Assembly: GCA_039588275.1 (NCBI GenBank)
Contig: JBDHAC010000003.1
Coordinates: forward strand, 17,707-81,706
Source of the DNA: Gemmatimonadota bacterium
GTDB lineage: Bacteria; Gemmatimonadota; Gemmatimonadetes; Palauibacterales; Palauibacteraceae
Direction: 5' to 3'
DNA length: 64,000 nt
The translations under genes and the position numbers were made by a program. The notes beneath the pieces are model-generated. The model did no database searches. It was given only the letters and a program-made list of their open reading frames with translations, and was not told the DNA's origin. Shown here one piece after another: positions 41,422 to 57,896 of this stretch. Within the stretch, counting starts at the first letter, position 1, and each line of letters starts with the position of its first letter.

Positions 41422-41429
41422 GATGCGCG

Positions 41430-43622
41430 ATGCCGGCGCTTGAATCCGCGACGCTAACGGTCCGCGCACGAGCCACGGCCGCATGTGGCGGATTTGCGCT
41501 CGCGGCGCTGCTCATCCCCACTTCGCTCGCGGGGCAAGGCACGCAGCGTGGTAGCTGCACCCTGATCTGGGAACCGACCACCGCGGACACGCGCAGCGTC
41601 AGCACCCGCGAGGGGCAGGACGCGTACGTGACGCATGTGAGCGGCGGGATGCTGTGGACGTGCGGTACGGCCACGATGCGCGCGGACAGCGCAGTCAAGT
41701 ACGACCTGGCCCGCCGCGTGGACCTGATCGGGAACGTGCGCTATCGGGATACGATCCGCACCCTGGAGTCGGTATACCTCACCTATTTCGAGCTCGATGA
41801 CCGAGTCATCGCTACCGACAGCGTCCACTTGACGCGGCTTGTCGACGGCTCGACGCTGACGGGGCCCCGAGTGGAGTTTCTGCGGGCGGTGACGGGCGTG
41901 GATGAAGAGACGATCGCGACCGGCCGGCCCCACATGGTGCTTTACCCGGAAGGAGATGACCCTGGCCCGCCGTTCGACGTCGACGCGGACCGGGCCATCT
42001 TCGCCGGGGAGGAAGAGGCGCGCGCGTTCGGGGATGTGATCATCACCCGACCTGACCTTCGCGCCGAGGCTGACTCCACCACCTTTCGCATCCCCGAGGG
42101 GACGGGGGTCTTGTACGGATCCCCTCGGGTGGAAGCCGAGACTATCACTCTGCGCGGCGACACCATCCGGACCGGCTTCGAGGACAACGTGTTGCGGGAC
42201 GTGCATGCGCTCGGCCGAGCGCATGCGCAGGGCGAGTCGTTCGAGGTCCGGTCGGAGCGCATCGACGTCGCGGTAGAGGACGACGAGGTGGAGGCAGTGT
42301 GGGCCCACGGTGCGGGCATGGCGGAAGCCATATCCGGGGACCAGCACCTGTACGGCGATTCGCTGCGCTTCGCGATGTTCGAGGGTCGGCTCGACACCAT
42401 CAACGCGGTCGGCCGAACTGCGGCTGTCCAGGGCACCGGGCCGGCTCGCTTCGAATTGGAGACGGCGACCGTTCCCGAGACCGAGTCGGGCGATGAGGCT
42501 GCCGTCCCGCCCGCCGCGGACTCGATCGGCGTCGCGGAGCCGGTGGCCGAAGACTCGGTGCGCGCCCCGGACCCGGTCGTGGAGGATTCGGTCCGCCTGC
42601 CGGAGCCGATGGCCGAAGACTCGATCGGCGTCGTAGAGCCGGTGGCCGAAGACTCGGTGCGCGCCCCGGAGCCGGTCGTGGAGGATTCGGTCCGCACACC
42701 GGTCCAGCAACCCTTCGAGGCGGCCGAGGCGGTTCCGCTGGAGGAGGACCCGGGCGAAGGTGCCACACCCACCGTGGCCCGCGGCGTGGCCGACGAGAGC
42801 GTGGCAGGCGAGGCGAATGCCGACACGACCTCCCGGGCGGAGCCCGACCGATCCGACGAGGTATCGAGGTTGCGTCTGCCCACCGAAGAGGACTCCAATT
42901 GGGTGAGCGGAGATACCCTGTACGCGATCTTCGAGCGCACCCCGCGAGCGGCCGGGCCGAGTCCGCCGGAGAGCACGCGGGCAGCCCCGATTCTCCCGGA
43001 CAGCGCAGGGGCAGCCCGGATTCTCCCGGACAGCGTCATCGCCATCCCGGTTCCGACCGACAGCGCGGTCGCCGTGCCGGCCGAGCCGGACTCCACGGCC
43101 GACCCCGTCTTGGAGCGACTCACGGTTATCGGTCACGCGCGCTCCCTGTACGCGCAGGTCCGTGACACGGCCGCAGCCAATCGACCCTCCCGCAATTACA
43201 TGATCGGATCGCGGATAGACATCTTCTTCCGCGACGGGGAGCCTGAACGGGTGGAAGGTACGGACGCCATCGGTCTATACCTGGAGCCGCTCGAGACGCC
43301 GGAGAGCCAGGCCCCCGAGACCGGCGCGGTCCCGGCGCCGCAAGACACGACGGGCACCGGCGCCCGCGAAGACACGACGAGTGTCCGTGTTCGCGAAGAC
43401 ACGACCCAGGTCTCGCAACCACCGGACTCGAGCGGAGGTGTGCCGACGCGTCCTCGGGAGAGCGGTGCGCGCTCCACCGCGAGCGTGACGAACTCGGCCG
43501 CTCGAGACGGCCGTCGGGATCCACCCGCGAGAGATTCGGTGCAGGGCAAGAGGTCTGGAACCGCTGCATCCCGAGCGTCTCGCATGCGGTCGGGGCCACC
43601 ACTGTCGAGGATCTTTCCATGA
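41430..43622 (+). CDS. lptA: LptA/OstA-N domain protein with very long low-complexity repeat extension (about 730 aa)
   Basis: Signal peptide. OstA-like N-terminal 170 aa. Positioned between lptC and lptB. Confidence 0.6.
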   Translation: MPALESATLTVRARATAACGGFALAALLIPTSLAGQGTQRGSCTLIWEPTTADTRSVSTREGQDAYVTHVSGGMLWTCGTATMRADSAVKYDLARRVDLIGNVRYRDTIRTLESVYLTYFELDDRVIATDSVHLTRLVDGSTLTGPRVEFLRAVTGVDEETIATGRPHMVLYPEGDDPGPPFDVDADRAIFAGEEEARAFGDVIITRPDLRAEADSTTFRIPEGTGVLYGSPRVEAETITLRGDTIRTGFEDNVLRDVHALGRAHAQGESFEVRSERIDVAVEDDEVEAVWAHGAGMAEAISGDQHLYGDSLRFAMFEGRLDTINAVGRTAAVQGTGPARFELETATVPETESGDEAAVPPAADSIGVAEPVAEDSVRAPDPVVEDSVRLPEPMAEDSIGVVEPVAEDSVRAPEPVVEDSVRTPVQQPFEAAEAVPLEEDPGEGATPTVARGVADESVAGEANADTTSRAEPDRSDEVSRLRLPTEEDSNWVSGDTLYAIFERTPRAAGPSPPESTRAAPILPDSAGAARILPDSVIAIPVPTDSAVAVPAEPDSTADPVLERLTVIGHARSLYAQVRDTAAANRPSRNYMIGSRIDIFFRDGEPERVEGTDAIGLYLEPLETPESQAPETGAVPAPQDTTGTGAREDTTSVRVREDTTQVSQPPDSSGGVPTRPRESGARSTASVTNSAARDGRRDPPARDSVQGKRSGTAASRASRMRSGPPLSRIFP
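42519..42716 (+). repeat. two 99-nt tandem copies, each made of three 33-nt sub-repeats (11-aa DS[VI]RxPEPVAE units), in lptA
   Basis: Copies start at 42519 and 42618. Identity is near-perfect over about 78 nt. Confidence 0.8.
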
Positions 43623-44582: not shown

Positions 44583-46052
44583 GTGAGCGGAATGCGACCC
44601 GGCCTCCACACGGGCCTTCGAATGAAACAAGAGTTGAAGGTGAATCCTCGCCTGTATCAGGCGATGGACCTTCTCTATATGCCCCTCCTCGATCTTCAAC
44701 AGCACCTCAAGCAAGAGCTCGTCAACAACCCGTTCCTCGACCTCGTCGAGCCGGGCGAGGACGAGTTGAAGGAAGAAGCCGAGGAAAAGGAAGACCCCGA
44801 AGAGGAGGAAGTCGATTGGGAGGAGATCCTGCTCAACGGCTTCGATGCGGGGGGACGGCGCGCGGAGTACGAGGAGAAGGAGTACTTCCGACCCACCCCG
44901 GCCGCGACGCGGGATCTGTGGGACCACCTGTTCGATCAGCTCACGTTGATGAAGCTGGTTCCGCGCGAGGTGCTGATCGGCGAGGAGATCATCGGCAACA
45001 TCGACCGGGAAGGCTTTCTGACCTGTTCGCTGGGGCAGATCGTAGAGTCGGTGAACAACTATCTCGCGGACCCGGAAAACCCGCTCGTCCGTGAGGCGGA
45101 GGAGGCCGAAGAGGAGATCAATCTCGAGTCGGTCACCACGGAGGAAGTGGAGCGGATGCTCGGCATGATACAGGGCTTCGATCCCAGCGGGATCGCGGCT
45201 CGCGATCTGCGCGAGACGTTGCTCTTGCAGCTCCGAGACCGAGGCGAGGAGGACACGCTGGCGTTCCGGATCGTCCGCGATCACTTCGACGAGTTGGTGA
45301 ATCATCGTTGGAGCGAGCTCTCGAAGGAGCACGGCATCTCGCCGCAGGAAGTCCAGAGCGCTGCGGATGAGATTTCGAAGTTGGACCCGAAGCCGGGGCT
45401 CAAGTACTCGGACCTGTCCGACGCCTACGTGATTCCCGATCTCGTCGTCGAGAAGATCGACGGCCAGTATTACGTCTTCCACAACGACACCTCGCTGCCT
45501 CGCCTCAAGCTCTCGCGCTCCTATCGCGAGGTCGCGCAGGACCGAGGCAAGTTCCAGGGCGAGAACAAGACCTTCATCTCGAAGAAGCTCAACAGCGCCC
45601 AGTGGATGATCCAGGCGATCGAGCAGCGCCGGCAGACCATGCTGAAAGTGATGAACTTCATCGTCGACCGGCAGCGGGACTTCTTCGAGAAGGGCGTCGA
45701 GCACCTGCGCCCGCTCACTCTCCGCGAGGTCGCCGAGCACATCGACATGCATGAGTCGACGGTGTCGCGGGTCACGAACGAGAAGTACGTGCAGACACCT
45801 CGTGGCGTATTCCCACTCAAGTTCTTCTTCTCGAGCGGGCTGTCCACCGACTACGGGGAGGATGTGTCGGCCCGCGGCGTGCGGGCGCAGATCAAGAAGC
45901 TCGTGGGAGAGGAGGATTCCACGAGCCCGCTCACGGACCAGGCCATCGTCGACATCCTGAAACGAGACGGCGTACAGATCGCGCGCCGAACGGTGGCAAA
46001 ATACCGCGACCAGCTCGGGATCCTCTCCGCTCGCATGCGCAAGCGCGTATGA
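44583..46052 (+). CDS. rpoN: RNA polymerase sigma-54 factor
   Basis: N-terminal LKQELKVNPRLYQAM. C-terminal RpoN box ARRTVAKYRDQLGI. aggagg RBS 6 nt before GTG. Confidence 0.9.
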   Translation: MSGMRPGLHTGLRMKQELKVNPRLYQAMDLLYMPLLDLQQHLKQELVNNPFLDLVEPGEDELKEEAEEKEDPEEEEVDWEEILLNGFDAGGRRAEYEEKEYFRPTPAATRDLWDHLFDQLTLMKLVPREVLIGEEIIGNIDREGFLTCSLGQIVESVNNYLADPENPLVREAEEAEEEINLESVTTEEVERMLGMIQGFDPSGIAARDLRETLLLQLRDRGEEDTLAFRIVRDHFDELVNHRWSELSKEHGISPQEVQSAADEISKLDPKPGLKYSDLSDAYVIPDLVVEKIDGQYYVFHNDTSLPRLKLSRSYREVAQDRGKFQGENKTFISKKLNSAQWMIQAIEQRRQTMLKVMNFIVDRQRDFFEKGVEHLRPLTLREVAEHIDMHESTVSRVTNEKYVQTPRGVFPLKFFFSSGLSTDYGEDVSARGVRAQIKKLVGEEDSTSPLTDQAIVDILKRDGVQIARRTVAKYRDQLGILSARMRKRV

Positions 46053-47134
46053 CCGAAGCGGCCGCGGACGAACGATCCGTACCAGCGGCTCCCCCTTCCC
46101 ACCCGGTCTCGGCTCCAGATGTCTCGCGCTCCGAGACCCCGCCTGCGAAGGCACCGCAGGTGACCGCGGCCTCCTCGCCGGCCCCCAGGGTCTCGATCGT
46201 GATCCCGGCGTTCAACGAAGCCGAGAACATGCCCGAGCTCTTCGACGAGCTCGCCGGAACCATCCGTGAGCACGACCTTCACGCCGAGATCATCCTCGTG
46301 GACGATGGTTCGACCGACGGCACGCTGACCGCGGCTCGCCAGGCGACCGAGGCAGCAGACTTGCGGGACGTCACGCTGCTCCAGCACCGGCGCAACCGAG
46401 GCAAGACGGAGGCGCTGATCACGGCCGCACGCGAGGCACGGGGCGAGTATCTGGTGCTGTTCGACGCCGACCTGCAGCATTCGCCGCAGGAGATCCCACG
46501 CTTCGTCGAGCGCCTGGACTCGGGCGTGGATGTCGTCGCCGGTCGTAAGGTAGGACCGTACGAAAAGCGACTCGTATCGGGCCTCTACAATTGGCTCGCG
46601 CGGAAGATCTTCCGAGTCCCGGCTCGAGACCTGAACGCCATGAAGGCGTTTCGCGCCGAGGTCCTGGATCGCATCCACCTACGCCATGATTGGCACCGGT
46701 ATCTCGTGATCCTGGCGCATGCCGAAGGATACGAGATCGGGGAGATGGACATCCGGCTATACCCGCGCCGACACGGGGAGCCCAAGTACTCCGGCCGTCG
46801 GCGAATCCTCGTGGGAATCCTGGACCTGCTGGCCGTGTGGTTCCAGCTCGTGTTCAGTCGCAAGCCCATGCTGTTCTTCGGCGTGACCGGACTGGGGCTG
46901 TTGGTGGCGGGCGGGATCACGGGCGCGGTAGCGCTTGTCCTCCGCTTTGCCTTCCAGCTCGGCTTTCGACCCCTGCTCACGCTGGTCCTGCTGCTCGTGA
47001 TGTCCGGGCTAGTTCTTTTCGTGCTGGGCTTCCTGGCGGAGTTGATCGCGGGGCTGCGGGGGGAGATCGAGGAGCTAAGACGAGAGCGTCGTGAGGGGCG
47101 CTGGCGGGTGGGGACCGGCGACCGCCAGGACTGA
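46049..47134 (+). CDS. GT2 polyprenol-phosphate sugar synthase (GtrB/ArnC/Dpm1-like) with C-terminal TM helices
   Basis: VSIVIPAFNEAENM...LVDDGSTDGT motifs. Confidence 0.75.
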   Translation: MTEAAADERSVPAAPPSHPVSAPDVSRSETPPAKAPQVTAASSPAPRVSIVIPAFNEAENMPELFDELAGTIREHDLHAEIILVDDGSTDGTLTAARQATEAADLRDVTLLQHRRNRGKTEALITAAREARGEYLVLFDADLQHSPQEIPRFVERLDSGVDVVAGRKVGPYEKRLVSGLYNWLARKIFRVPARDLNAMKAFRAEVLDRIHLRHDWHRYLVILAHAEGYEIGEMDIRLYPRRHGEPKYSGRRRILVGILDLLAVWFQLVFSRKPMLFFGVTGLGLLVAGGITGAVALVLRFAFQLGFRPLLTLVLLLVMSGLVLFVLGFLAELIAGLRGEIEELRRERREGRWRVGTGDRQD

Positions 47135-48676
47135 GTGAGCGACGATCCGAAGGCGGACCCGGGGAGTTCCCGCCGCTCGCGCTTCGGGTGGACGGCGGCG
47201 GGTCTCGCCACCCTGCACGCGGTGGTCGGGTTGCTCCTCTTCGAGCCCACGCTCTTTCCGGGCGGCGACAACGCAGGCTATCTGATCCTCGGCGATTCAC
47301 TGAGAACGGGTAGCGGATACCGAGACCTCTACCTGCCAGGGTCCCCGCTCCACGCCAGGTATCCCCCGCTGCTGCCGTCGCTTCTAGCGCTCCTCGGCAC
47401 GCTCGGCGGCACCCATCTCGCCAAGATCGCCATGCTAGCCTGCACGTCGCTCGCGGTCTGGGTCACGGCGATCCTGGGCCGCCGACTCGTTGGAGATGGC
47501 CCCGCTCTATTCGCAGCGGCGCTACTGGCCATCAACCCGACGTTGCTCGAGTACGGGCACTACATCCTGTCCGAGGCCCCCTTCGTGTTGCTGGTCGTAC
47601 TGGCGTTGTGGGCGTCGCAGCGCGACGACCGTCAGGGGGCGGTACTGGCCACCGTCGCTGCGGTCGGTGCGTTCGCCACGCGTACGGCGGGACTTACCGT
47701 GCTACTGGCGCTCCCGCTGAGCTGGGTGGCCCGAAAGTCCTGGCGTCGCGCCGCCTGGGGAGGCATCGTGGCGATCTCCACGCTCGCGATCTGGGGACTC
47801 TACCAGCGCTGGGCCGCGCCGGAGCAGCCGGGCTACTTACAGGAACTCGTGCTCATCGACCCCTACACCCCCGAGGCGGGCTCGGTGGGCCTTACCGGAC
47901 TTGCCTTGCGCGCGGCGGAGAACCTCTGGGCGTACGCGAGCCGCGTCATCCCGCAGACTGCGATCGGCACGGAAGGAGCGGCCACACCTCTGGTCGCGAT
48001 CTTCGGGCTCACGCTGGCGGGGCTCGCGCTCGCTGGCTGGGCGATGCGCACCCGCAAGCCGCTGGACCCCCCGGAGATCTTCGTACTGCTCTATGTGGGG
48101 CTGATCGCGATCTGGCCTCAGGTCTGGACCGATCGGCGTTTCCTGCTCCCGCTCCTTCCGATGCTCACGCTGTTGGCCCTCGGCTTCGTCGCCAGCCGGG
48201 GCGACCGCGCGCGGCGCTGGGCGCCGGCCTTACTGGCGTGCGCAATCGCGCTCCCCTGTCTCGTGTGGGTTGTCAAACGGGTGCCCGCGCGCGTTGAATG
48301 CGTCGCGATGTATCGTGCGGGCCAACCGTGCGATATTCCGGCGTTCGCCAGCCTATACGAAGCCGCCCGCTGGGCCCGTGACAGCACGCCCCCCGATGCA
48401 ATCATCGCCAACCGGAAGCCGCGGCTGTTTTACTGGTACTCCCGCCGGCAGGGTGACCTGTACCCGTTCTCGACCGACGAAGATATCGTGCTCGGCGGGC
48501 TCGAGCGCATGGGTGCGGACTTCGTTGTCGTCGACCAGGTGAGTGGCACCACGGGACGTTATCTGGTCCCGGCCATCCAGGCCCGGCAGCACCGTTTCGA
48601 GCCTGTATACCAGGGAGGGTCCCCACCGACCTTCGTGTTTCGGATGCTGCCGTCGTCTCCCGTGGCCGTAAAATGA
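47135..48676 (+). CDS. polytopic membrane protein, putative GT-C fold glycosyltransferase (ArnT/PMT-like)
   Basis: About 11 TM helices. First periplasmic loop with an acidic/aromatic motif. Stop-start coupled to the upstream GT2 gene. Confidence 0.4.
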   Translation: MSDDPKADPGSSRRSRFGWTAAGLATLHAVVGLLLFEPTLFPGGDNAGYLILGDSLRTGSGYRDLYLPGSPLHARYPPLLPSLLALLGTLGGTHLAKIAMLACTSLAVWVTAILGRRLVGDGPALFAAALLAINPTLLEYGHYILSEAPFVLLVVLALWASQRDDRQGAVLATVAAVGAFATRTAGLTVLLALPLSWVARKSWRRAAWGGIVAISTLAIWGLYQRWAAPEQPGYLQELVLIDPYTPEAGSVGLTGLALRAAENLWAYASRVIPQTAIGTEGAATPLVAIFGLTLAGLALAGWAMRTRKPLDPPEIFVLLYVGLIAIWPQVWTDRRFLLPLLPMLTLLALGFVASRGDRARRWAPALLACAIALPCLVWVVKRVPARVECVAMYRAGQPCDIPAFASLYEAARWARDSTPPDAIIANRKPRLFYWYSRRQGDLYPFSTDEDIVLGGLERMGADFVVVDQVSGTTGRYLVPAIQARQHRFEPVYQGGSPPTFVFRMLPSSPVAVK

Positions 48677-49920
48677 GAGCTCTCCACATCGTGACAGCGT
48701 TTCCTCGCCACGAGGATGACGTGATCACGCCCTGGCTCGGGAACGTATTGCTCGGTCTTCGAGACGCGGGAGTGGACGCAGAGGTGCTCGCGCCGGCGTA
48801 CCGGGGGGGCGGAGCGCGCGAATGGCGTGGGATTACCGTTCGACGGTTTCGATACGCTCCCGCCGCCCTCGAGACGCTGACCCACGACGAAACTACCCCG
48901 GACCGACTGAAGCACCGTCCGTGGTACGTCGGCCTTCTGCCTGGTTACGTTGTGGGAGGAGCCATGGCGGCCTACCGCGCGGGCCAGACGGTACCGGACG
49001 TCATCCACGTCCATTGGCCGGTCCCGCACGGACTGTTCGGAGCGATCGGTCAAGTGGCGTCGGGCGGCCGATCGGCGCTCGTCGCAAGCTACTACTCGGT
49101 GGAGCTCAAGTGGATCGAGCGACGGCTCCCTAGCCTCGTCCCCTTCTTGCGTTGGACGATCGACTGTGCCGACGAAGTGACCGCGATCTCGACAGCGACG
49201 GCCCGGGAAGTCCGTCGGCACGTGGAGCGTCCGGTCCGGGTCATCCCGTTCGCGACCGGACTCTCGGGGGAGGTCGTCGATATCGGGCGGGGAGCGCGCC
49301 CTGCGGAGCAAGCGCCCGAGATCCTGTTTGTGGGTCGACTGGTGGAGCGAAAAGGCGTCGAGGTGCTGGTTCGCGCGCTGGCCCGTTTGCGCGAGCGGCG
49401 GGACGTGCGGGTTACGATCGTCGGAGAGGGGACCTGGGAGCCGCGGATTCGCGCGGCTGTAAGCGCCGCCGGGGTGGAGGACGCCGTGACCTTCACCGGG
49501 CGCGTCGATGAGTCGGCACTCGTCGAGGCCTATGGACGCGCGAGTGTGTTCGCGCTTCCCGCCGTGGAGGACGTGAAGGGAGACACCGAAGGACTCGGCG
49601 TCGTTCTGCTCGAGGCAATACGGCTTGGGGTGCCGGTCGTCGCTTCCTCTGCGGGCGGCATACCCGATATCGTGGTCGACGGCGAAACGGGGTGGCTCGT
49701 ACCGCCGCGTGATGACCGAGCGCTCGCCCGCGCGTTGCAGGAGGTTATCGATGATCCGGAGGAGGCGCGTCGACGTGTGGCGCGCGGCCGCGAACGGGTG
49801 GAACGGCGGTTTTCGCCCGAGGGGGTCGTGGCCTCGCTCGTCGAGTGCTACGAAGCCGCCATCACTCGGCGCCGAGGGTTCCAGACCGGTGGCGATCAAA
49901 GTGCGCCGACGGCGTCCTAA
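48673..49920 (+). CDS. GT4 family glycosyltransferase (GT-B fold)
   Basis: EGLGVVLLEAIRLGVPVVASSAGGIPDIV motif. Confidence 0.75.
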   Translation: MRALHIVTAFPRHEDDVITPWLGNVLLGLRDAGVDAEVLAPAYRGGGAREWRGITVRRFRYAPAALETLTHDETTPDRLKHRPWYVGLLPGYVVGGAMAAYRAGQTVPDVIHVHWPVPHGLFGAIGQVASGGRSALVASYYSVELKWIERRLPSLVPFLRWTIDCADEVTAISTATAREVRRHVERPVRVIPFATGLSGEVVDIGRGARPAEQAPEILFVGRLVERKGVEVLVRALARLRERRDVRVTIVGEGTWEPRIRAAVSAAGVEDAVTFTGRVDESALVEAYGRASVFALPAVEDVKGDTEGLGVVLLEAIRLGVPVVASSAGGIPDIVVDGETGWLVPPRDDRALARALQEVIDDPEEARRRVARGRERVERRFSPEGVVASLVECYEAAITRRRGFQTGGDQSAPTAS

Positions 49921-49939
49921 CCCGGGGAGTCATTGATCC

Positions 49940-50848
49940 ATGGTCAAGCTCGCGGTCGTCCGATGGTACCTCAACGCGCTGTACCTGCGTGCGCTCCGGC
50001 TGCGAGACCGCTGGCTGCGTCCCCGCGCCTTGAACGCCATCGACGCCAACCTGGCGAGCTCGCTGTTCACGGAGTACGAGTCGATCGCGGAGGAGCTCTC
50101 GCACGTGGAGCGGCTGCAAAACCGCGAGTTCAAGGTCTTCTCGCAGAATGGGGAAGATGGCCTGCTTGCCTACATCTTCTCCGAGATCGGCACGACGAAT
50201 CGGCGGTTCGTAGAATTCGGAGTCGAGGACGGACGGGAGTGCAATTGCGCCAATCTCGCGATCCACTTCGGCTGGAGCGGCCTGATGCTCGAGGCCAACC
50301 CGGCCGATGTGCACCGGGCCCGGGTCTTCTACGGCAGGCTGCGAGGGGAGGATGGCCCGAGGGTGGCCGTGGAGGAGTGCCTCGTGACGATCGAGAACAT
50401 CAACGAAGCGATCGCGGCGGGCCGGGTGACGGGTGAGATAGACCTGCTCTCCATCGACATCGACGGGAACGACTACTGGATCTGGGAGGCGATCGATGTC
50501 GTCAGCGCGAGAGTGGTGGTCATCGAATACAACGCGTCCTTCGGCAGACGCTCCATCAGCATCGCGTACGATCCGGGGTTCGTTCGCTTCAAGGCGCACC
50601 GCAGCGGCTGGTACCACGGCGCGTCGCTCGCAGCCTTGACGAAGCTCAGCGACCGTAAGGGATACGACCTGATCGGCACGGACAGCTTTGGCGTGAATGC
50701 TTTCTTCGTTCGGCGGGATGTGCCGAAGGGGAGACTGGAGGCATTGGAGGCGGACGAGGCGTACCGACCGCAGCGCAAGCGTATGAAGGTCGCGACGCTG
50801 GAGCAGCAGTTCGCGGCGATCGAGCACTTGGCCTACGTTGACGTCTAG
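49940..50848 (+). CDS. FkbM-family methyltransferase-like protein
   Basis: FVEFGVEDG...LEANP and IDLLSIDIDGNDYWIWEAI blocks resemble FkbM domain motifs. Confidence 0.4.
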   Translation: MVKLAVVRWYLNALYLRALRLRDRWLRPRALNAIDANLASSLFTEYESIAEELSHVERLQNREFKVFSQNGEDGLLAYIFSEIGTTNRRFVEFGVEDGRECNCANLAIHFGWSGLMLEANPADVHRARVFYGRLRGEDGPRVAVEECLVTIENINEAIAAGRVTGEIDLLSIDIDGNDYWIWEAIDVVSARVVVIEYNASFGRRSISIAYDPGFVRFKAHRSGWYHGASLAALTKLSDRKGYDLIGTDSFGVNAFFVRRDVPKGRLEALEADEAYRPQRKRMKVATLEQQFAAIEHLAYVDV

Positions 50849-50869
50849 GCGACACGATCGCCGTGTCCG

Positions 50870-53293
50870 GTGACAGATGAAGGAGACGTCGATCGAAATG
50901 CTCACGTGGGTGAGTCGGGGGAGGTGAAGGGGGGGGCACGCGGGCACGGGAAGGCCATCCTGTGGGTGTTCCTGGGTGGCGCCGCCCTGGCGAGCGTGTG
51001 GTTCTACCGCGAGTTCGTCTTCTTCGCGGAGCGGCTCATCTATGGCTCGGACATGCTGTTCGAGGGGATTTCCCTTCGGCGGTTCTACGTAGATGAGATC
51101 CGAGCCGGTCGCGGTGTTCCGCTGTGGATCCCGCACGTATACGGCGGAATGCCCTTCGTCGCGCTGCTTCCCGGACCGATCTTCTACCCGACGACTCTCC
51201 TGTACCTCCTCATGCCGCTCCATCGAGCCATTGGCTGGACCTTCGTCCTGCACACGTTCCTGAGCGGCGCCTTCGCGTATTTCATGGCCCGATCCTTCCG
51301 CCTGCGGCCGAGCTCGGCGGTAGTCTGCGGCGTCTCGTTCATGTTCACCGGGTACGTCACGTCACACCTGTTCGGAGGGCATGACGGACGGATGTTCGCC
51401 ATGACCCTGATCCCCCTGGCCATCGGCTCGCTCCAGCGAGGACTCGATACCGGCGAAGCGCACTGGTTCGGAGCGCTCGCCCTCGTCGTGGCAATGCAGA
51501 TCTTCACGCCGCACATGCAAGTGATGTATTTTTCATGTCTTGCACTGTCCCTATTCCTCCTGTTCCATCTCCTGGTCCGGGTACCTCGCGCTCCGGAGGG
51601 GGGGCGGAGGGGGGCGTACGCGCGACCGCTGGCCGGCTTCGCACTCGCATTGCTGGCGGCGATCGCGATCGGTGGGTTACAGCTGTTTCCGACGCTGGCA
51701 CTCCTTGACGACGCGACGCGCGCCGCGACCGAGCGGGGGTACGAGTTCGCCGCCTCTTACGCGTTGCCTCCCCAGGAGCTTACGGCACTCTTTCTCCCGG
51801 ACCTGGTCAGCTCGCTGCCGGGGCGGTACTGGGGCCAGAACCCACTCAAGCTCCACACGGAGTATCTGGGTGCGGTGCCGTTGGCGCTGGCGCTCTTCGC
51901 CATTGCGTCAGCATTTCGCCCCGGACTGAGCCGCGAGCACCGCCGCGTCATTGGCTTCCTGGTGGTGGCGAGTCTCCTGGGGGTCCTCTTCGCACTCGGG
52001 GCGGCGACGCCCGTCCACCGACTCGCGTACGTCGTATTGCCTATGATCCGGAGCCTGCGGGCGCCGGCGATGATGCTCGGGCCGGTCTCGGTCTTCATCG
52101 CGCTATTGGCGGGCTTCGGGTGGGAGGCCGCGGCGGCGCGGCGGGAGACTCCAGGGGATGAGGGCCCGTCGGTGTCGTGGGTCGCCCTCGCCCTCCTCGC
52201 GGGTCCCGTCTTGCTGCTCGGCGTTGTGGCGGCCGTCAATCCGCGCGGACTGCTTCGCTTCGTCCTCCTCGAGTGGTATCCGACCGGGTGGCCGCGCGAA
52301 CCTGACCCGGCGCTCGTGCCGGCCCTGCGCGCCAACGGAATGCTGCTCCTGGGAGGGTTTGGCCTTGCCTGGGGAGTCGCCCTCGCGGTGTCCCGTCGTA
52401 AGGTCAGCGAGCTGGCGCTCGTGCTCGTCGTCCTGTTTGCCGTCGCGGACCTGTGGCGGGTCGATTCACGGTACCTGGAGGTGCGCGACGCCGGGGAGCT
52501 CGAAGCCGATTCCGTTCTCACGGCGCTCACGAGTGAGACCAGCCCCGGGGAACGAGTGTGGGCGCCCGCCCTCGCCGGCTCAGTGCCCAACTATCGACCG
52601 AACCGCCTCATCTACCACGGCGTCTCGTCGGCGACGGGTCGTCAGAAGTTCCTTCTTCGCCCTTTCGCGAGGCTCGTGGGAGGCATCCAGCCGGACGAGG
52701 GACTGCTCCGGTATCCTGCGCTTCTCGGACTACTCGACGTTCGGTACCTGATCACGCCGGGGGTCCAGAATGGCCTCGACCTCGTCGCGGAGGCGGGCGG
52801 CCGCTACCTGTATCGCCTTCCGGACCCACCCCACGCCTTCTTTCCGGTGGACATCGCCGTGGTCGACGATACGGCGGAGGCCCTCGCGCGCACCCGCTCG
52901 AACCCGGACCCCATGACCCTCACAGTCGTAGAGGCCAGCTCGGGTAGGGAGCCGCCGGCGCCGGGGCGTGGACGCGCGTCGATCGTGGGTTACGAGCCCG
53001 ATAGGATCGAACTCGGTGCGGAGGTCGAGCTCCCCGGACTGCTGGCGGTGAGCGAGATCTTCCACCCGGGCTGGCGCGCGTACGTGGACGACGAGGAGGT
53101 CCCGGTATGGCGGGTCAACGTGGCGTTTCGGGGCGTCGAGGTGCCCGCCGGGACGCATCGAATCACCTTCGAGTACGATAGCCGTTCCTACCGCCTGGGG
53201 TTCTGGTTGAGCATGCTGACGATGATCGGGGTCGGTGTCGTGATGTGGCTTTCGTGGCGCAGGTCTCGCCTCGCGTCGAAGAGCGCGATTTGA
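50870..53293 (+). CDS. YfhO-family polytopic membrane protein (GT-C type glycosyltransferase)
   Basis: 807 aa with about 13 TM helices and a C-terminal periplasmic domain. The N-terminal region is typical of YfhO. Confidence 0.6.
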   Translation: MTDEGDVDRNAHVGESGEVKGGARGHGKAILWVFLGGAALASVWFYREFVFFAERLIYGSDMLFEGISLRRFYVDEIRAGRGVPLWIPHVYGGMPFVALLPGPIFYPTTLLYLLMPLHRAIGWTFVLHTFLSGAFAYFMARSFRLRPSSAVVCGVSFMFTGYVTSHLFGGHDGRMFAMTLIPLAIGSLQRGLDTGEAHWFGALALVVAMQIFTPHMQVMYFSCLALSLFLLFHLLVRVPRAPEGGRRGAYARPLAGFALALLAAIAIGGLQLFPTLALLDDATRAATERGYEFAASYALPPQELTALFLPDLVSSLPGRYWGQNPLKLHTEYLGAVPLALALFAIASAFRPGLSREHRRVIGFLVVASLLGVLFALGAATPVHRLAYVVLPMIRSLRAPAMMLGPVSVFIALLAGFGWEAAAARRETPGDEGPSVSWVALALLAGPVLLLGVVAAVNPRGLLRFVLLEWYPTGWPREPDPALVPALRANGMLLLGGFGLAWGVALAVSRRKVSELALVLVVLFAVADLWRVDSRYLEVRDAGELEADSVLTALTSETSPGERVWAPALAGSVPNYRPNRLIYHGVSSATGRQKFLLRPFARLVGGIQPDEGLLRYPALLGLLDVRYLITPGVQNGLDLVAEAGGRYLYRLPDPPHAFFPVDIAVVDDTAEALARTRSNPDPMTLTVVEASSGREPPAPGRGRASIVGYEPDRIELGAEVELPGLLAVSEIFHPGWRAYVDDEEVPVWRVNVAFRGVEVPAGTHRITFEYDSRSYRLGFWLSMLTMIGVGVVMWLSWRRSRLASKSAI

Positions 53294-53330
53294 TCGGACC
53301 AGCGAGGGGGTTTCCACCCATGAAGCGCCG

Positions 53331-54323
53331 GTGACCGAGCTCGGGCACAGCGAGAGGGAGACCGCGGGGTCCCGGCTCCGTGACCGGAGGCGGGTACGGT
53401 TGGCTACGGGGCTCTTCCTCCTGCTCGCGCTGGTCGCCGTAGCGGTTGCCATACGAGGCGAATGGGCCGCGTGGACCACACTCGAGGACGACACGCGCAC
53501 CTATGGGTGGAGAGTGTCCGTTCCATTCCTCGCGGTGGCACTCGGGTGCGGAGTCTCGGCCCTGTTGGCGTCAGGCGCGCTGTGGGCCGCCCTGTTTCGG
53601 TCGGCCGGAGGACGTACCGGATGGCGTGAGGCGATCGCGGCCTGGTTGGGCTCCAACCTCGGAAGGTACCTGCCGGGCAAGTTCTGGCAGCTCGCCAGTC
53701 TCGCGGCGTACGTGCGAGCTCGTGGCGACTCCGGAGCCCGTGCGCTCACGGTGTCCTTGGCCCTTCAGGCCGTGGTCCTCGCAGCGGGCGCAGCCGTCGC
53801 GGTGATCTTTCTTGGCGGCCAAGCGTTTGGCGCCGCGAGCCCCTGGACGATCGCCATCGCGGTCGCGGCCATCGCCTTGGCGCTCAACCCGGCGGTACTT
53901 CGGCGGTCTATCGTCTGGGCAGGGTACCTCCTTCGCGAGGAGCCGACCCCCGAGGTGTCGGGACTCGGCTATGGCGTGCTGCTCCGCGCGGCAGCATGTG
54001 CCTTTGTGCTGTGGGGCTTGTATGGAGTGGGCTTCTGGGCCCTATGCAAGGGTCTGGTCGGAGGGAGCCCGGTGTCCGTCTCGATCGCAGCGGCCGTGTT
54101 CGCAGCCGGATACATCGTCGGTTACGTCGTACTCCTCGCGCCCGGGGGCATCGTGGTTCGCGAAGGTGCGATCGCCGGCCTCCTCGGTGCGGTGGCCGGT
54201 GTCCCGCTGGGACCAGCGACGGCGATCGCGCTCGCGGCGCGGCTGTGGACCACCGTGGCCGAGCTTCTCGCGTTCGCGCTCGCCGCTGGTGCCGGGCTGC
54301 GGCGACACTCCGGATCGCGCTAG
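53331..54323 (+). CDS. flippase-like lysylphosphatidylglycerol-synthase-TM (UPF0104) domain membrane protein
   Basis: About 8 TM helices. The family is frequently paired with Dpm1-like GT2 genes. Confidence 0.55.
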   Translation: MTELGHSERETAGSRLRDRRRVRLATGLFLLLALVAVAVAIRGEWAAWTTLEDDTRTYGWRVSVPFLAVALGCGVSALLASGALWAALFRSAGGRTGWREAIAAWLGSNLGRYLPGKFWQLASLAAYVRARGDSGARALTVSLALQAVVLAAGAAVAVIFLGGQAFGAASPWTIAIAVAAIALALNPAVLRRSIVWAGYLLREEPTPEVSGLGYGVLLRAAACAFVLWGLYGVGFWALCKGLVGGSPVSVSIAAAVFAAGYIVGYVVLLAPGGIVVREGAIAGLLGAVAGVPLGPATAIALAARLWTTVAELLAFALAAGAGLRRHSGSR

Positions 54324-54333
54324 CTTCCGGTCC

Positions 54334-55134
54334 ATGGAGGCAGAAGGGGGTGGGCGCGAGAGAGTGCCGGGAACCGACGGAGAACGATCGACCGTGAGCG
54401 GCACGATCCGGGAGAGCGCGGGTCGAGGGCTCGTGATCCTGCCTACGTACGAGGAGGTGGAGAGTCTCGGTCAGATCGTACCGCGCATCCTGGCGCTGGA
54501 TCCCCGCCTCGATATTCTGGTGATCGACGATGCGTCGCCTGACGGCACGGGAGAGCTGGCGGACCGTTTGGCTTCGGAGGAGCCCAGGGTCTCCGTTATG
54601 CACCGCGAGGGGAAACTAGGACTCGGGTCGGCTTACATCGCCGGCTTTCGGACCGGGCTGGAACGCGGGTACGACCTCCTGTTCGAGATGGATGCGGATG
54701 GTTCGCACGACCCTGAGCACCTCGTTCCGATGATCGCGGCGACGGAAGAGTTCGACGTCGTCGTCGGATCGCGCTACCTGCGCGGCGTGAACGTGATCAA
54801 CTGGCCGATGTCCCGTCTGCTGCTCAGCTACTACGCCAACAAATACGCCCGGGTGGTCACGGGCCTGGCTCTGGCGGACCTGACGAGCGGCTTCAAATGC
54901 TTCAAGCGCGAAGTGCTGGAGGCGATCCGCCTCGAGAAGGTCGGCTCCACCGGATACGCGTTTCAGATCGAGATGAACGTTCGAGCCTGGAAGCGGGGTT
55001 TCCGCGTGGGCGAGATCCCGATCGTGTTCGTGGATCGGGAAGCGGGGCAGAGCAAGATGTCGGGGGCCATCGTCCGCGAAGCGATATGGCGGGTGTGGGC
55101 GCTGCGCTTCAAGTCGATGTTCGGGAGGCTATAG
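54334..55134 (+). CDS. GT2 polyprenol-phosphate hexose synthase (Dpm1/Ppm1-like, soluble)
   Basis: VILPTYEEVESL...VIDDASPDGT...DADGSHDP motifs. ATG at 54334 lies inside the longer ORF. Confidence 0.75.
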   Translation: MEAEGGGRERVPGTDGERSTVSGTIRESAGRGLVILPTYEEVESLGQIVPRILALDPRLDILVIDDASPDGTGELADRLASEEPRVSVMHREGKLGLGSAYIAGFRTGLERGYDLLFEMDADGSHDPEHLVPMIAATEEFDVVVGSRYLRGVNVINWPMSRLLLSYYANKYARVVTGLALADLTSGFKCFKREVLEAIRLEKVGSTGYAFQIEMNVRAWKRGFRVGEIPIVFVDREAGQSKMSGAIVREAIWRVWALRFKSMFGRL

Positions 55135-55141
55135 GAGGCCG

Positions 55142-56074
55142 GTGAAGGAGCTCGCTGACGTTCTGCATCCGGCCCGGCGGAGGGTCCGGCCGGCGATCGA
55201 CTACAAGAGCCATCCGGTGTTCGCCACGCGGCCGGAATGGCGATGCGAGGTGCACCGGATCATCTTCGGGCACCTGACGCCGGGCGGGAAGCTGTTCGAC
55301 ATCATCCTGATCGCGGTGATCCTGGTCAGCGTCGCCGTCGTAATGATCGAGAGCGTCGCATCCGTGCGACTGCGACACGGCACTGCCCTGAGGACCGCAG
55401 AGTGGGTGTTCACCCTGCTGTTCACGCTCGAGTACGCGATGCGTCTCGTTGCGGCGGAGAACGCGGGCCGATACGCGCGCAGCCCCCTGGGGTTGATCGA
55501 CTTCCTCGCGGTCCTGCCCACCTACGTGAGCCTCCTCATCCCTGGAGGGCAGGCGTTCACCGTGATTCGGATCCTGCGCGTGATGCGCGTGTTTCGCGTG
55601 CTCAAGCTCGCGCAGTTCGTCGGGGGCGAGCAGCTGCTCATCCGGGCCCTGCGCGCGAGCTCATACAAGATCGTCGTGTTTCTCATCGCGGTGCTGACCG
55701 TCGTCGTGATCATGGGGTCGATCATGTACTTCATCGAGGGGCCCGAACACGGCTTCACGAGCATCCCGGTTGGCGTGTACTGGGCGATAGTGACGCTCAC
55801 CACGGTGGGTTTCGGAGACATCACCCCACAAACGCCGATTGGTCAGGTTCTGGCGGCGATGCTCATGATCCTCGGTTACGCCGTCATCGCCGTGCCCACG
55901 GGCATCGTGACCGTCGAGATGGCAGCCGCCGGGCAGCGTCGCATACTCCCCCGCGACAAGCCGGGAAAAGCGCGGCAATCGGGCCAGCGGCGCGTGTGCC
56001 TCGGGTGCGGCGCCGAGGGGCACGATGAGGACGCCACCCACTGCAAGTTCTGCGGGGTCCATCTGCCGACATGA
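55142..56074 (+). CDS. voltage-gated K+ channel (6TM, S4 sensor) with C-terminal zinc ribbon
   Basis: S4 segment IRILRVMRVFRVLKL. Pore TLTTVGFGD. C-terminal CLGCG...CKFCG. Confidence 0.75.
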   Translation: MKELADVLHPARRRVRPAIDYKSHPVFATRPEWRCEVHRIIFGHLTPGGKLFDIILIAVILVSVAVVMIESVASVRLRHGTALRTAEWVFTLLFTLEYAMRLVAAENAGRYARSPLGLIDFLAVLPTYVSLLIPGGQAFTVIRILRVMRVFRVLKLAQFVGGEQLLIRALRASSYKIVVFLIAVLTVVVIMGSIMYFIEGPEHGFTSIPVGVYWAIVTLTTVGFGDITPQTPIGQVLAAMLMILGYAVIAVPTGIVTVEMAAAGQRRILPRDKPGKARQSGQRRVCLGCGAEGHDEDATHCKFCGVHLPT

Positions 56075-56115
56075 GGCGGATCCCGAAGGAGCACGCCGCC
56101 GCCGAGCCGCGGCCC

Positions 56116-56159
56116 GGTGCACGTGTGAGAAGCGCCCGGGCGCGGCATCGACGTGCACC
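56116..56159 (+). other. nested GC-rich hairpin: outer 9-bp stem ggtgcacgt/acgtgcacc enclosing the 12-bp palindrome gcgcccgggcgc
   Basis: Read directly in the channel-antiporter intergenic region. Confidence 0.6.
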
Positions 56160-56180
56160 CAGGAGCCGTAGGGAGACAAG

Positions 56181-57896
56181 GTGAGCGGCGAGCCGATCTT
56201 TCTCTTCCTGATCCAGGTGGTCGTCGTCCTCAGCCTCGCCAGATTGTTGGGGGAGGTGTTCCGGTGGTTCAGGCAGCCGCCCCTGGCGGGCGAGATCCTC
56301 GCCGGCGTCCTTCTCGGGCAGACCGTGCTCGGCCACCTCGCGCCCGATCTGTTCGTGGCGCTGTTTCCGCCGGACGAGCTACAGGAAGCGATGTTCGGCG
56401 TGACCGCCGAGATCGGGATCCTCTTCCTCCTGCTCGTCGTGGGTCTCGAGGTCAACGTGGCCTCGGCCTGGAAGATGCGGAACCAGACGTTCACGGTCGC
56501 CGTCACTGGCGTACTGGTGCCGTTGGCGCTCGGGACCGCGGTCGCCTGGCTCCTCTACGACCAATGGGTCGAGGTCCCGACGCCTCGCCTGGCGTTCGCC
56601 CTCCTCGTCGGAGCAGGTGTCGCGATCACGGCGATAACCGTGGTCGCACGGCTCCTCTTCGACCTCAAGATCATGAAGTCCGACCTCGGGCTCTTCCTCA
56701 TCTCGGCGATGGCGCTCAACGAGCTGCTCGGGTGGGCGGTTCTCGCGGTGGTGCTCGGTCTCGTTGGAGCGGGAGCCGCGGGAGAGGGGATGGATGGCCA
56801 CGGACTCGCGTGGACCATGGTCGGGGTCGTGCTCTTCGCCGCGTTCGCTCTCACCGTGGGCCGCTGGCTCGCCACACGGGCGCTTCTGTGGATGGATCGG
56901 GCGGAGCTACCCAGCCCAGCCGCCCCGCTCTCGTTGGTCGTTTGCTTCGGTCTCATAGGTGGCATCGTGACGGGCGCGCTCGGGATTCACCCCGTCTTCG
57001 GATTCCTGATCGCCGGGATCATGGCCAGCGACCCCAGAGCTCTTTCCGAGCATACGCGCGCGATCATCGAACAGATGGTGGAGGCCATCTTCGTGCCGCT
57101 CTTCTTCGCGGGGATCTGCCTGCGGATCGATTTCGTGAGCGATTTCGACACCGTCACCGTGTTGTCGGTGACCGCGCTCTCCATCGTGGGCAAGTTTGTG
57201 GGAGCGGGTTTGGGAACGCTCATGGTTCGGATGCCCGCGGCGGACCGGCTCCCGGTCGCGATTGCCCATATCCCTGGCGGTCCGATGGGTGTGCTCCTCG
57301 CCAGCGTGGCGCTGGAAGCCGGGGTGATCGGGCCCCAGATGTTCGTCGCCCTGGTGATCGCCTCGATCGTCTCCGCACTTCTGGTGGGGCCCGCGTTCAC
57401 CCGGCAACTCCGGCAGGCCGAGACCCAGGACGTGTCGGCCTACATTGCGAAGGATCGCGTCGTGAGGCTGAGGGCGGCCTCGCGCGACGAGGCGATCGAG
57501 ACGCTCGCGGGCGTGGCCGCCGGGGCGCCCGGAGCGCCGGGATCGGACGTGATCCGCCGCGCCGTCGCGGCACGTGAAGCGACGATGGGAACGGGAGTGG
57601 GGAAGGGGATCGCGATCCCGCACGCGCGCATCCCGAACCTGAAGACGCCGATCATAGCGATCGGGATCTGCAGGGAGGGCATCGAGTGGGACGAGGTCGA
57701 CGGGAAGCCCGCGCACCTCATCTTCCTCGTGTTGACCTCGAGCAGGGACGAACGCGACACGCAGCTGAGGATTCTGGCCCAGATCGCGCGGTGCTTCTCC
57801 GATCCCCAACGGATGCGCGACGTGGTCGACGCCGTCGACACGGAAGGTGTGTGGGGGTGTCTGCAGGCCTCGCTGCAACCGGCGGCGCTAGGCTGA
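56181..57896 (+). CDS. CPA2 cation/proton antiporter fused to C-terminal PTS EIIA type-2 (PtsN-like) domain
   Basis: Na+/H+ exchanger TM domain (about 400 aa), followed by ...GTGVGKGIAIPHARIP... (EIIA-Ntr active-site His motif). Confidence 0.75.
   Translation: MSGEPIFLFLIQVVVVLSLARLLGEVFRWFRQPPLAGEILAGVLLGQTVLGHLAPDLFVALFPPDELQEAMFGVTAEIGILFLLLVVGLEVNVASAWKMRNQTFTVAVTGVLVPLALGTAVAWLLYDQWVEVPTPRLAFALLVGAGVAITAITVVARLLFDLKIMKSDLGLFLISAMALNELLGWAVLAVVLGLVGAGAAGEGMDGHGLAWTMVGVVLFAAFALTVGRWLATRALLWMDRAELPSPAAPLSLVVCFGLIGGIVTGALGIHPVFGFLIAGIMASDPRALSEHTRAIIEQMVEAIFVPLFFAGICLRIDFVSDFDTVTVLSVTALSIVGKFVGAGLGTLMVRMPAADRLPVAIAHIPGGPMGVLLASVALEAGVIGPQMFVALVIASIVSALLVGPAFTRQLRQAETQDVSAYIAKDRVVRLRAASRDEAIETLAGVAAGAPGAPGSDVIRRAVAAREATMGTGVGKGIAIPHARIPNLKTPIIAIGICREGIEWDEVDGKPAHLIFLVLTSSRDERDTQLRILAQIARCFSDPQRMRDVVDAVDTEGVWGCLQASLQPAALG

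Follow-up and report, generated by a model that had tools for sequence, protein, structure and literature searches.

The regulatory (nitrogen) branch of the phosphotransferase system (PTS) is so far known to control ion transporters through separate proteins in a few Proteobacteria, and the signal that it senses is debated. In Escherichia coli, the K+/H+ antiporter YcgO (CvrA) is inhibited by unphosphorylated PtsN, a protein of the EIIA type, which binds to the C-terminal region of the antiporter (PMC11808508; PMC13445646 gives the physiological follow-up); coupling takes place on the cytoplasmic C-terminal side of YcgO, and the phosphorylation state of the PtsN His decides the interaction. 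In diderm bacteria PtsN is a stand-alone protein of about 150-160 amino acids (aa), encoded in the cluster in which rpoN is normally followed by hpf, ptsN, yhbJ and ptsO (PMC3162934). Two other transporters carry their regulator on the same chain. In KefC, inhibition comes from the C-terminal RCK domains, which dock on the transporter module (PMC11150392). LacS of Streptococcus thermophilus, a sugar/H+ symporter outside the PTS, has a fused C-terminal IIA domain of the glucose class (IIAGlc); HPr~P phosphorylates this domain, which regulates transport in cis or within the dimer (PMC8154325). Here we describe a gene that joins a CPA2-type antiporter to a PtsN-like EIIA domain, together with the gene for a Kv-type potassium channel that precedes it, on a 64,000-nt stretch of a Gemmatimonadota genome (assembly GCA_039588275.1, contig JBDHAC010000003.1, positions 17,707 to 81,706; hereafter, the window).

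One gene for an antiporter and an EIIA domain

An initial annotation of this DNA had claimed that an EIIA type-2 domain is covalently fused to the C-terminus of a cation/proton antiporter, and had suggested checking this by a domain search and a survey of other genomes. Both analyses bear the claim out. Specifically, Pfam profiles PF00999 (2.5e-40) and PF00359 (1.2e-25) match above threshold within one open reading frame (ORF), whose coordinates, like those of the channel ORF, agree with the ones first given when the ORFs of the window are checked (Table 1). The same two domains are found on a protein of about 570 aa in nearly all of the 120 best homologues drawn from a collection of 5.8 billion proteins. 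In addition, when each GTDB species was represented by a single genome, relatives of the fusion were detected in 359 genomes from about 10 phyla; among the best 80 of these 359, nearly all match the near-complete protein, typically from residue 1 to about 565. Identity to the window protein is 95%, 94% and about 70% in other Gemmatimonadota, 51-58% in Myxococcota, and 36-44% in Omnitrophota, Planctomycetota, Spirochaetota, WOR-3, Stahlbacteria, Nitrospinia and Verrucomicrobia.

The source contig is metagenome-assembled, and we therefore checked whether a sequencing frameshift or a faulty assembly had made one gene out of two. No support for this was found. An uninterrupted ORF of about 570 aa recurs in the 359 species genomes and in hundreds of independent assemblies; this excludes such an artefact for practical purposes, and we leave it only a negligible probability. 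The linker between the domains is itself conserved, with Trp at position 408 in 100 of 115 full-length relatives aligned with MAFFT, followed by an Arg-rich stretch. The AlphaFold2 model, built from an alignment of 115 sequences, is also confident across the domain junction (mean pLDDT 87.7, pTM 0.83). The initial annotation had warned that the tail might lack the EIIA fold or the catalytic His, or that the domains might prove to be separate genes once a frameshift was corrected; the fold and the His are present, and the ORF is single and continuous. The fusion is one genuine, conserved gene and not the product of a frameshift.

Automatic annotation already displays both domains on such proteins, for example under the JGI label 'KefB/mannitol/fructose-specific phosphotransferase system IIA domain', and a literature search, not exhaustive for reviews of the PTS, returned no published description of a CPA2-EIIA fusion. 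The architecture is uncharacterised, yet visible in databases. Its surroundings in protein space are broad: a search with the tail alone against 1.8 billion representative proteins gave 10,103 matches at E<=0.001, the nearest being CPA2 fusions of about 570 aa, fragments, free proteins of about 150 aa and longer multi-domain proteins. Four of the longer variants (P0246, P0252, P0254 and P0283) combine Na_H_Exchanger with two tandem EIIA_2 domains by Pfam, and one of them also has a C-terminal TrkA_C (RCK_C) domain. These variants make EIIA tails on CPA2 carriers, as judged from domain content, a recurrent design.

Table 1. Positions of the genes, domains and residues discussed, in window coordinates
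Feature	Position	Strand	Basis
rpoN (sigma-54)	44583..46052	+	Pfam Sigma54_AID, Sigma54_CBD, Sigma54_DBD
Envelope/glycosyltransferase cluster: GT2, PMT_2-like, GT4, unknown (302 aa, no Pfam match), YfhO, LPG_synthase_TM, GT2	46049..55134	+	Pfam
Kv-type potassium channel gene, six transmembrane helices, 310 aa, GTG start	55142..56074	+	Pfam, PDB sequence matches
S4 voltage-sensor helix, RILRVMRVFRVLK, aa 143-155	55568..55606	+	Sequence reading
K+ selectivity filter TVGFGD, aa 221-226	55802..55819	+	Sequence reading
C-terminal zinc ribbon, CLGCGAEGHDEDATHCKFC, pattern CxxC-x4-HDxDAxHCKxC, aa 286-304	55997..56053	+	Sequence reading
Spacer of 106 nt, channel to antiporter, with Shine-Dalgarno-like AGGGAGA before GTG	56075..56180	+	Sequence reading
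Fusion gene, single ORF, 571 aa: CPA2 antiporter with C-terminal EIIA type-2 domain	56181..57896	+	Pfam PF00999 and PF00359, AlphaFold2
Na_H_Exchanger (CPA2) membrane domain, aa 16-407	56226..57401	+	Pfam, 2.5e-40
Ion-site residues N180-E181	56718-56723	+	Aligned to NapA D156-D157 (phmmer)
Lys K338	57192-57194	+	Aligned to NapA K305 / KefC K307
PTS EIIA type-2 (PtsN-like) domain, aa 424-561	57450..57863	+	Pfam, 1.2e-25
Arg465-Glu466, active-site partners of His481	57573-57578	+	Alignment to PtsN structures
His481 codon, predicted phosphorylation site, in GIAIPH	57621..57623	+	Aligned to PtsN active site
Gln528 codon, aligned with the second active-site His of PtsN	57762..57764	+	TQL aligned to THL, AHL, EHL of PtsN structures

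Tail and carrier compared with their described relatives

The tail of the fusion scores 90.7 bits against PF00359 (threshold 27), and its best four matches among PDB sequences are all PtsN (IIANtr) proteins: 3urr and 4gqx (about 3e-12), 1a6j (5e-11) and 2a0j (2.5e-10). The same four structures were retrieved with the modelled tail in Foldseek, with TMt 0.87-0.89 and rmsd about 1.8-2.0 (for 1a6j, TMt 0.88 and rmsd 2.0); over all the IIANtr structures matched, TMt is 0.84-0.89. The active-site motif GIAIPH that the initial annotation had pointed out is present, and its His481 aligns with the PtsN active-site His, His73 in E. coli numbering; Gln528 aligns with His120. EIIA type-2 domains have a second conserved active-site His, which is His120 in PtsN and His111 in IIAMtl. 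The tail thus shows the profile, the fold and a phosphorylatable His with an upstream Arg, but not the second His.

Residue conservation was assessed on the alignment of 115 full-length relatives and on a second set of 79 distinct species loci with 36-95% overall identity. His481, Glu466 and Ala478 are invariant in all 115 proteins and Arg465 is kept in 114, with Pro480, Ala482 and Arg483 nearly invariant. The Arg, Glu and His of the active site are likewise retained in 79 of 79 loci. Across about 10 phyla, the phospho-acceptor site does not depart from the constellation R-E ... G-x-G-[IV]-A-[IV]-P-H-A-R. By this measure the predicted phospho-acceptor site is under strong purifying selection across phyla.

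Curated models leave the subfamily of the tail ambiguous. Its NCBIfam scores are 75.6 for fruA-IIA (cut-off 103.5), 52.4 for the PtsN model TIGR01419 (cut-off 138.7) and 44 for the PtsN model NF008145 (cut-off 221). It is not PtsN proper, for which an equivalog score and a stand-alone protein encoded in the rpoN cluster would be expected: the domain is fused, and its gene lies about 9 kb from rpoN. The sequence matches and the modelled fold together identify the tail as a PtsN-like EIIA type-2 domain with a conserved predicted phosphorylation site.

The membrane domain scores 139 bits against PF00999 over aa 16-407 (cut-off 26.2) and 119.5 bits against the CPA2 subfamily model TIGR00932, below the cut-off of 238.3. 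A phmmer search of PDB sequences with the carrier domain gave, at E<=0.001, entries of Thermus NapA only (best 5bz2, 1.9e-19); chains of KefC were not reached at this threshold and are matched by fold only. The AlphaFold2 model agrees with the NhaA/NapA-type fold of 13 transmembrane helices, and Foldseek pairs it with NapA 5bz2 (E 4.5e-15, TMt 0.84), with KefC (1.6e-10) and also with NHA2 and NhaP. The essential carboxylate of the ion site is present as E181, aligned to NapA D157 (KefC D156), Glu in place of Asp being a variant. N180 is retained in all 115 relatives, K338 is kept in 112, and the residue at 181 is Glu in 69 of them and Asp in the other 46. With respect to Thermus thermophilus NapA, a Na+/H+ antiporter of the CPA2 family and the best solved relative of the membrane domain, the fusion shares the Lys equivalent to K305, but it differs in having N-E/D where NapA has a DD motif and in carrying an EIIA domain of 150 aa where NapA has no regulatory tail.

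The initial annotation had called the carrier 'Kef-type', which is right at the level of CPA2 and wrong if orthology is meant. KefC and KefB, which are K+/H+ antiporters gated by glutathione, belong to the same superfamily and share the overall fold, a C-terminal cytoplasmic regulatory domain in the equivalent position and the Lys equivalent to K307. Orthology with KefB or KefC was rejected: the two equivalog models give 37.6 bits against a cut-off of 804 (NF002973) and 32 against 752 (NF002924), Pfam finds no TrkA_N or TrkA_C match and thus none of the KTN/RCK domain that binds nucleotide and glutathione in Kef proteins, and the carrier, nearer to NapA by sequence, has N180-E181 in place of the 'QD' motif. 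In the KefC structure paper, K+ selectivity is ascribed to this 'QD', which replaces the 'ND/DD' of Na+/H+ exchangers (PMC11150392). We therefore advise caution with the 'KefB' annotation of such proteins, as their ion motif differs and their substrate is not assigned by sequence.

All together, these comparisons identify the carrier, at the level of prediction, as a NapA-like CPA2 monovalent cation/proton antiporter and not as a Kef protein. Since it has no RCK domain, an N-E rather than a Q-D motif and low KefB/KefC scores, K+/H+ exchange is assumed here and not established; the transported cation may be K+ or Na+, and the motif does not decide. An exchange of Na+ (or Li+) for H+, which would tie the PTS-type domain to sodium and pH homeostasis and not to potassium, is a real possibility to which we give somewhat less than an even chance. 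It fits with the Na+/H+ antiporter NapA being the closest solved relative by both sequence and fold, with the low KefB/KefC equivalog scores and with the first motif residue, which is Asn as in the 'ND' Na+/H+ exchangers and not Gln as in the 'QD' of KefC and KEA (PMC11150392). On the other hand, carriers of the 'ND' type in CPA1 include the K+/H+ antiporters YcgO and Vc-NhaP (PMC11808508; PMC6567090), the second residue is Glu in 60% of the relatives, a combination uncharacterised in the literature examined, and a K+ channel neighbours the fusion in two clades.

A possible phospho-switch in cis

The reading that we favour, by a little more than even odds, is that of a NapA-like CPA2 antiporter in which a PtsN-like EIIA domain replaces the usual RCK/KTN tail, as found in KefC, and in which His481 acts as a phospho-switch controlling exchange in cis. 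According to this model, His481 would be phosphorylated by a carrier of the HPr/NPr type charged from phosphoenolpyruvate (PEP). Depending on the phosphorylation state, the tethered EIIA domain would dock on the transporter core or release it, and cation/H+ exchange would thereby be coupled to the PEP/pyruvate (carbon/nitrogen) state of the cell. The fusion would represent the cis counterpart of unphosphorylated PtsN acting in trans on YcgO, and of the action of IIA in LacS; it is from the analogy with these two systems that we infer phospho-regulation in cis. For the docking step, the RCK tail of KefC is a third precedent (PMC11150392).

The likeness to PtsN and YcgO lies in the coupling of a PtsN-type EIIA domain to a cation/proton antiporter, the tail being nearest to PtsN by both sequence and fold. 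Unlike the fusion, the E. coli partners are separate proteins, and YcgO is a CPA1 carrier with RCK and CorC domains, while the fusion is a CPA2 carrier that has neither. The tail also differs from PtsN in its Gln at the His120 position and in missing the PtsN equivalog cut-off, and the gene is not beside rpoN. With LacS the fusion shares the architecture of a non-PTS secondary carrier followed by a C-terminal PTS IIA domain. The class of IIA is different, as the glucose-class domain of LacS belongs to a fold family other than EIIA type 2, and LacS carries sugar; phosphorylation, furthermore, is a prediction for the fusion.

The initial annotation had read the architecture as a 'Rosetta stone' for direct control of K+/H+ exchange by the nitrogen PTS. 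The logic is reasonable, since direct control of the K+/H+ antiporter YcgO by PtsN is known in trans (PMC11808508), and the conserved EIIA fold and His agree with it. The phosphorylation step of the claim stands less firmly: our search of the window and the loci brought up no EI, HPr or NPr, and for this reason modification of His481 is still something that we infer. This search combined tblastn, for which HPr, NPr, PtsN, Hpf and EI of E. coli and HPr of Bacillus subtilis served as queries, with a small HPr hidden Markov model, and covered the window and 83 loci; for PtsN, the window was also queried with the EIIA domain of the fusion itself. Apart from the fused domains themselves and a PtsN-like gene in two Spirochaetota loci (see below), nothing was matched. 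In the window, PtsN, HPr, NPr, Hpf and EI are all missing as free proteins by this search, and the Pfam scan of the genes downstream of rpoN showed none of them either, in agreement with the initial remark that no free ptsN or hpf lies nearby.

Several observations weigh against a phospho-switch acting on cation exchange. The position of PtsN His120 is Gln in 114 of the 115 proteins and in 77 of the 79 loci, and the tail falls below the curated cut-offs of PtsN and FruA-IIA. Neither the window nor about 1.3 Mb of flanking DNA from 80 genomes, a small part of each genome, yielded a gene for EI, HPr, NPr or HprK, and clustering of the neighbours in about 75 loci revealed no PTS gene recurrent beside the fusion. 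Finally, the ion motif N-E is neither the QD of Kef nor the classic DD/ND.

Some of these points are also what would be expected under the main rival explanation, in which the EIIA-like tail serves regulation or oligomerisation without being phosphorylated, for instance with a small anion bound as ligand where the phosphate pocket used to be, in a host that may have no PTS phosphorelay. We regard this as unlikely, though as deserving serious weight. The lack of a PTS partner gene in the window and the 80 loci, within the limits just given, is in its favour, as are the Gln across the relatives of the fusion, the missed PtsN and FruA-IIA cut-offs and the uncultured phyla to which many of the hosts belong. 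What it leaves unaccounted for is the invariance of the phospho-acceptor constellation over 36-95% identity and about 10 phyla, as purifying selection on a phosphorylation site predicts, and the superposition of the tail on genuine IIANtr at about 2 Å. The Gln itself is found, besides His and Tyr, at the corresponding position of the nearest EIIA domains.

Two Spirochaetota loci (L066, 9314-9709; L079, 15763-16068) are an exception among the neighbourhoods compared, with a free PtsN-like gene that lies downstream of the fusion at a distance of about 4 kb. Where the fusions have Gln, the free EIIA of both loci retains His.

The phospho-switch model, by analogy with the described systems, suggests a built-in metabolic control of ion exchange. 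Joined in one chain, the two domains provide an independent 'Rosetta stone' argument for direct action of EIIA on CPA antiporters, and evidence of such wiring beyond the Proteobacteria, in Gemmatimonadota, Myxococcota, Planctomycetota, Omnitrophota and others. In addition, the fusion offers a minimal object for structural work, with carrier and regulator in one polypeptide to be compared in both phospho states. Next to PtsN-YcgO and LacS, it is a useful compact experimental system rather than a categorical surprise.

The Kv-type channel and the surrounding genes

The gene preceding the fusion encodes a protein that matches Pfam Ion_trans (8.4e-38) and Ion_trans_2 (9.6e-14), and the solved structures nearest to it by sequence are the eukaryotic channels Kv2.1, Kv4.2, Kv1.3 and Shaker (about 1e-28 among PDB sequences). 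The initial annotation had described a voltage-gated K+ channel with an S4 helix of the form RxxRxxRxxRxxK, a TVGFGD filter and a CxxC…CxxC ribbon, and both Pfam and our reading of the sequence concur. More than 7,900 homologues were found in a protein database search. Among the best 120 of them, the S4 pattern is common to all, the filter is TVGFGD in 84 and TVGYGD in 35, and the zinc ribbon is retained in 119. The Ion_trans profile, the regularly spaced basic residues of S4 and the T-V-G-[YF]-G-D filter together predict a voltage-gated K+ channel of the Kv type.

As in the described Kv channels of prokaryotes and eukaryotes (KvAP, and the Shaker/Kv1-4 type), six transmembrane helices of the Ion_trans class are combined with an S4 that has five basic residues, one at every third position, and with a TVG[FY]GD filter. 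Unlike these, the window channel has a conserved C-terminal CxxC...CxxC zinc ribbon. The signature of this ribbon is very regular among the homologues (C-x2-C-x4-H-D-x-D-A-x-[HFY]-C-[KR]-x-C), which include ion transporters of 'Candidatus Palauibacter', and some of them have precomputed Pfam matches to zf-ribbon_8 or DZR. To our knowledge, no function has been described for a C-terminal zinc ribbon in Kv channels, and the subfamily is uncharacterised. On these comparisons, the zinc-ribbon channels look like a large and apparently unstudied subfamily of Kv.

The initial annotation had joined channel and antiporter in a K+ homeostasis module. Such a dedicated, co-transcribed pair appears doubtful to us, although several observations speak for it. 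The two genes lie on the same strand, 106 nt apart, and the spacer contains no terminator-like site on the + strand. L004 and L005, the closest relatives, also have the two genes side by side, and in four more Gemmatimonadota at about 70% identity (L007, L008, L010 and L030) the channel is found 2.5-4.8 kb upstream. In addition, the fusion of two Myxococcota is directly preceded by a distant Kv channel that has 27-29% identity and lacks the zinc ribbon; the distance is 43 nt in L015, and in L018 the position is given by a tblastn match. This arrangement is apparently independent of the one in Gemmatimonadota.

The wider comparison speaks against the pair: of about 80 species loci, about 70 lack a channel in the 10 kb around the fusion. 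Clustering of neighbours, all against all with four genes on each side of the fusion in about 75 loci, brought out no recurrent partner, the commonest neighbour family occurring in 7 loci. Relatives at about 70% identity have one or two unrelated genes between channel and antiporter, for example a CBM9/DUF5916 gene and an aldo-keto reductase gene in L002. The channel is tied rather to the preceding GT2 gene, which it follows at 8 nt in the window, abuts directly in L002 and always follows in the Gemmatimonadota of about 70% identity. The shared orientation of the pair carries little meaning because nearly all genes between 5.7 and 57.9 kb are on the + strand, and the K+ specificity of the antiporter is itself an assumption.

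What stands of the module is thus adjacency in close Gemmatimonadota relatives and in two Myxococcota; by gene order it is a clade-restricted arrangement with a hint of recurrence, and not a conserved operon. The Kv channel is a separate gene that is maybe co-transcribed with the antiporter, a functional pairing of the two being weakly indicated, and it may belong to the transcription unit of the preceding GT2 cluster. A scan for sigma-70 promoters and terminators over 54.8-58.3 kb gave nothing on the + strand.

Of the two Myxococcota channels, the one in L015 (8969-9958) is of the Kv type, on the same strand as the fusion, with an S4 helix and a TVGYGD filter and with no zinc ribbon. The L018 channel, at about 9062-9937, is also of the Kv type, upstream of the fusion and on its strand, and is known from a tblastn match alone.

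A far broader view can be drawn, to which we assign a low probability. In this view CPA2-EIIA proteins are a widespread family, spanning 10 phyla and 359 species or more, and a PTS-type phosphorelay would gate their cation/proton exchange in cis. The regulatory link between PTS and ion transport would then be ancient and general, the His/Gln variant would be a dedicated terminal 'switch' EIIA, and with the zinc-ribbon Kv channel the antiporter would form a pair for K+ release and recapture in Gemmatimonadota and some Myxococcota.

The link to the rpoN locus, also put forward by the initial annotation, is loose. The end of rpoN and the start of the channel gene are 9,089 bp apart, with seven genes between them, and it is this envelope and glycosylation cluster that stands downstream of rpoN in place of the canonical hpf, ptsN, yhbJ and ptsO. 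The same cluster precedes the channel in the relatives L002/L007, L004 and L005, and in other phyla the fusion is found in unrelated contexts. A scan of the window for TGGCAC-N5-TTGCW with up to 2 mismatches returned 11 sigma-54-like matches against about 16 expected, none of them at 53-58 kb.

Upstream of rpoN we identified, by Pfam and partly by reading of the translations, kdsA-like, kdsC and kdsD genes, two ORFs with no Pfam match and an lptB-like ABC ATPase gene. The two Pfam-less ORFs were taken as lipopolysaccharide-transport (Lpt) genes. One encodes 860 aa (41040-43622); the other, which overlaps it, encodes 307 aa (40498-41421) and has a low-complexity tail of PDSLAAEA-type repeats. 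Both sit between kdsD and the lptB-like gene, the expected place of lptC and lptA.

Almost all genes from about 5.7 to 57.9 kb (about 52 kb) are on the + strand, comprising the nuo operon, sucCD, fatty-acid synthesis genes, the kds/lpt genes, rpoN, the glycosyltransferase cluster, the channel and the antiporter. The cumulative GC skew climbs steadily to about 58 kb, the point at which the gene strand switches. Near the other end of the window, a 482-aa protein encoded at 1918-3366 on the - strand appears, by the look of its translation alone, to have an HD-GYP-type domain behind a receiver-like N-terminus.

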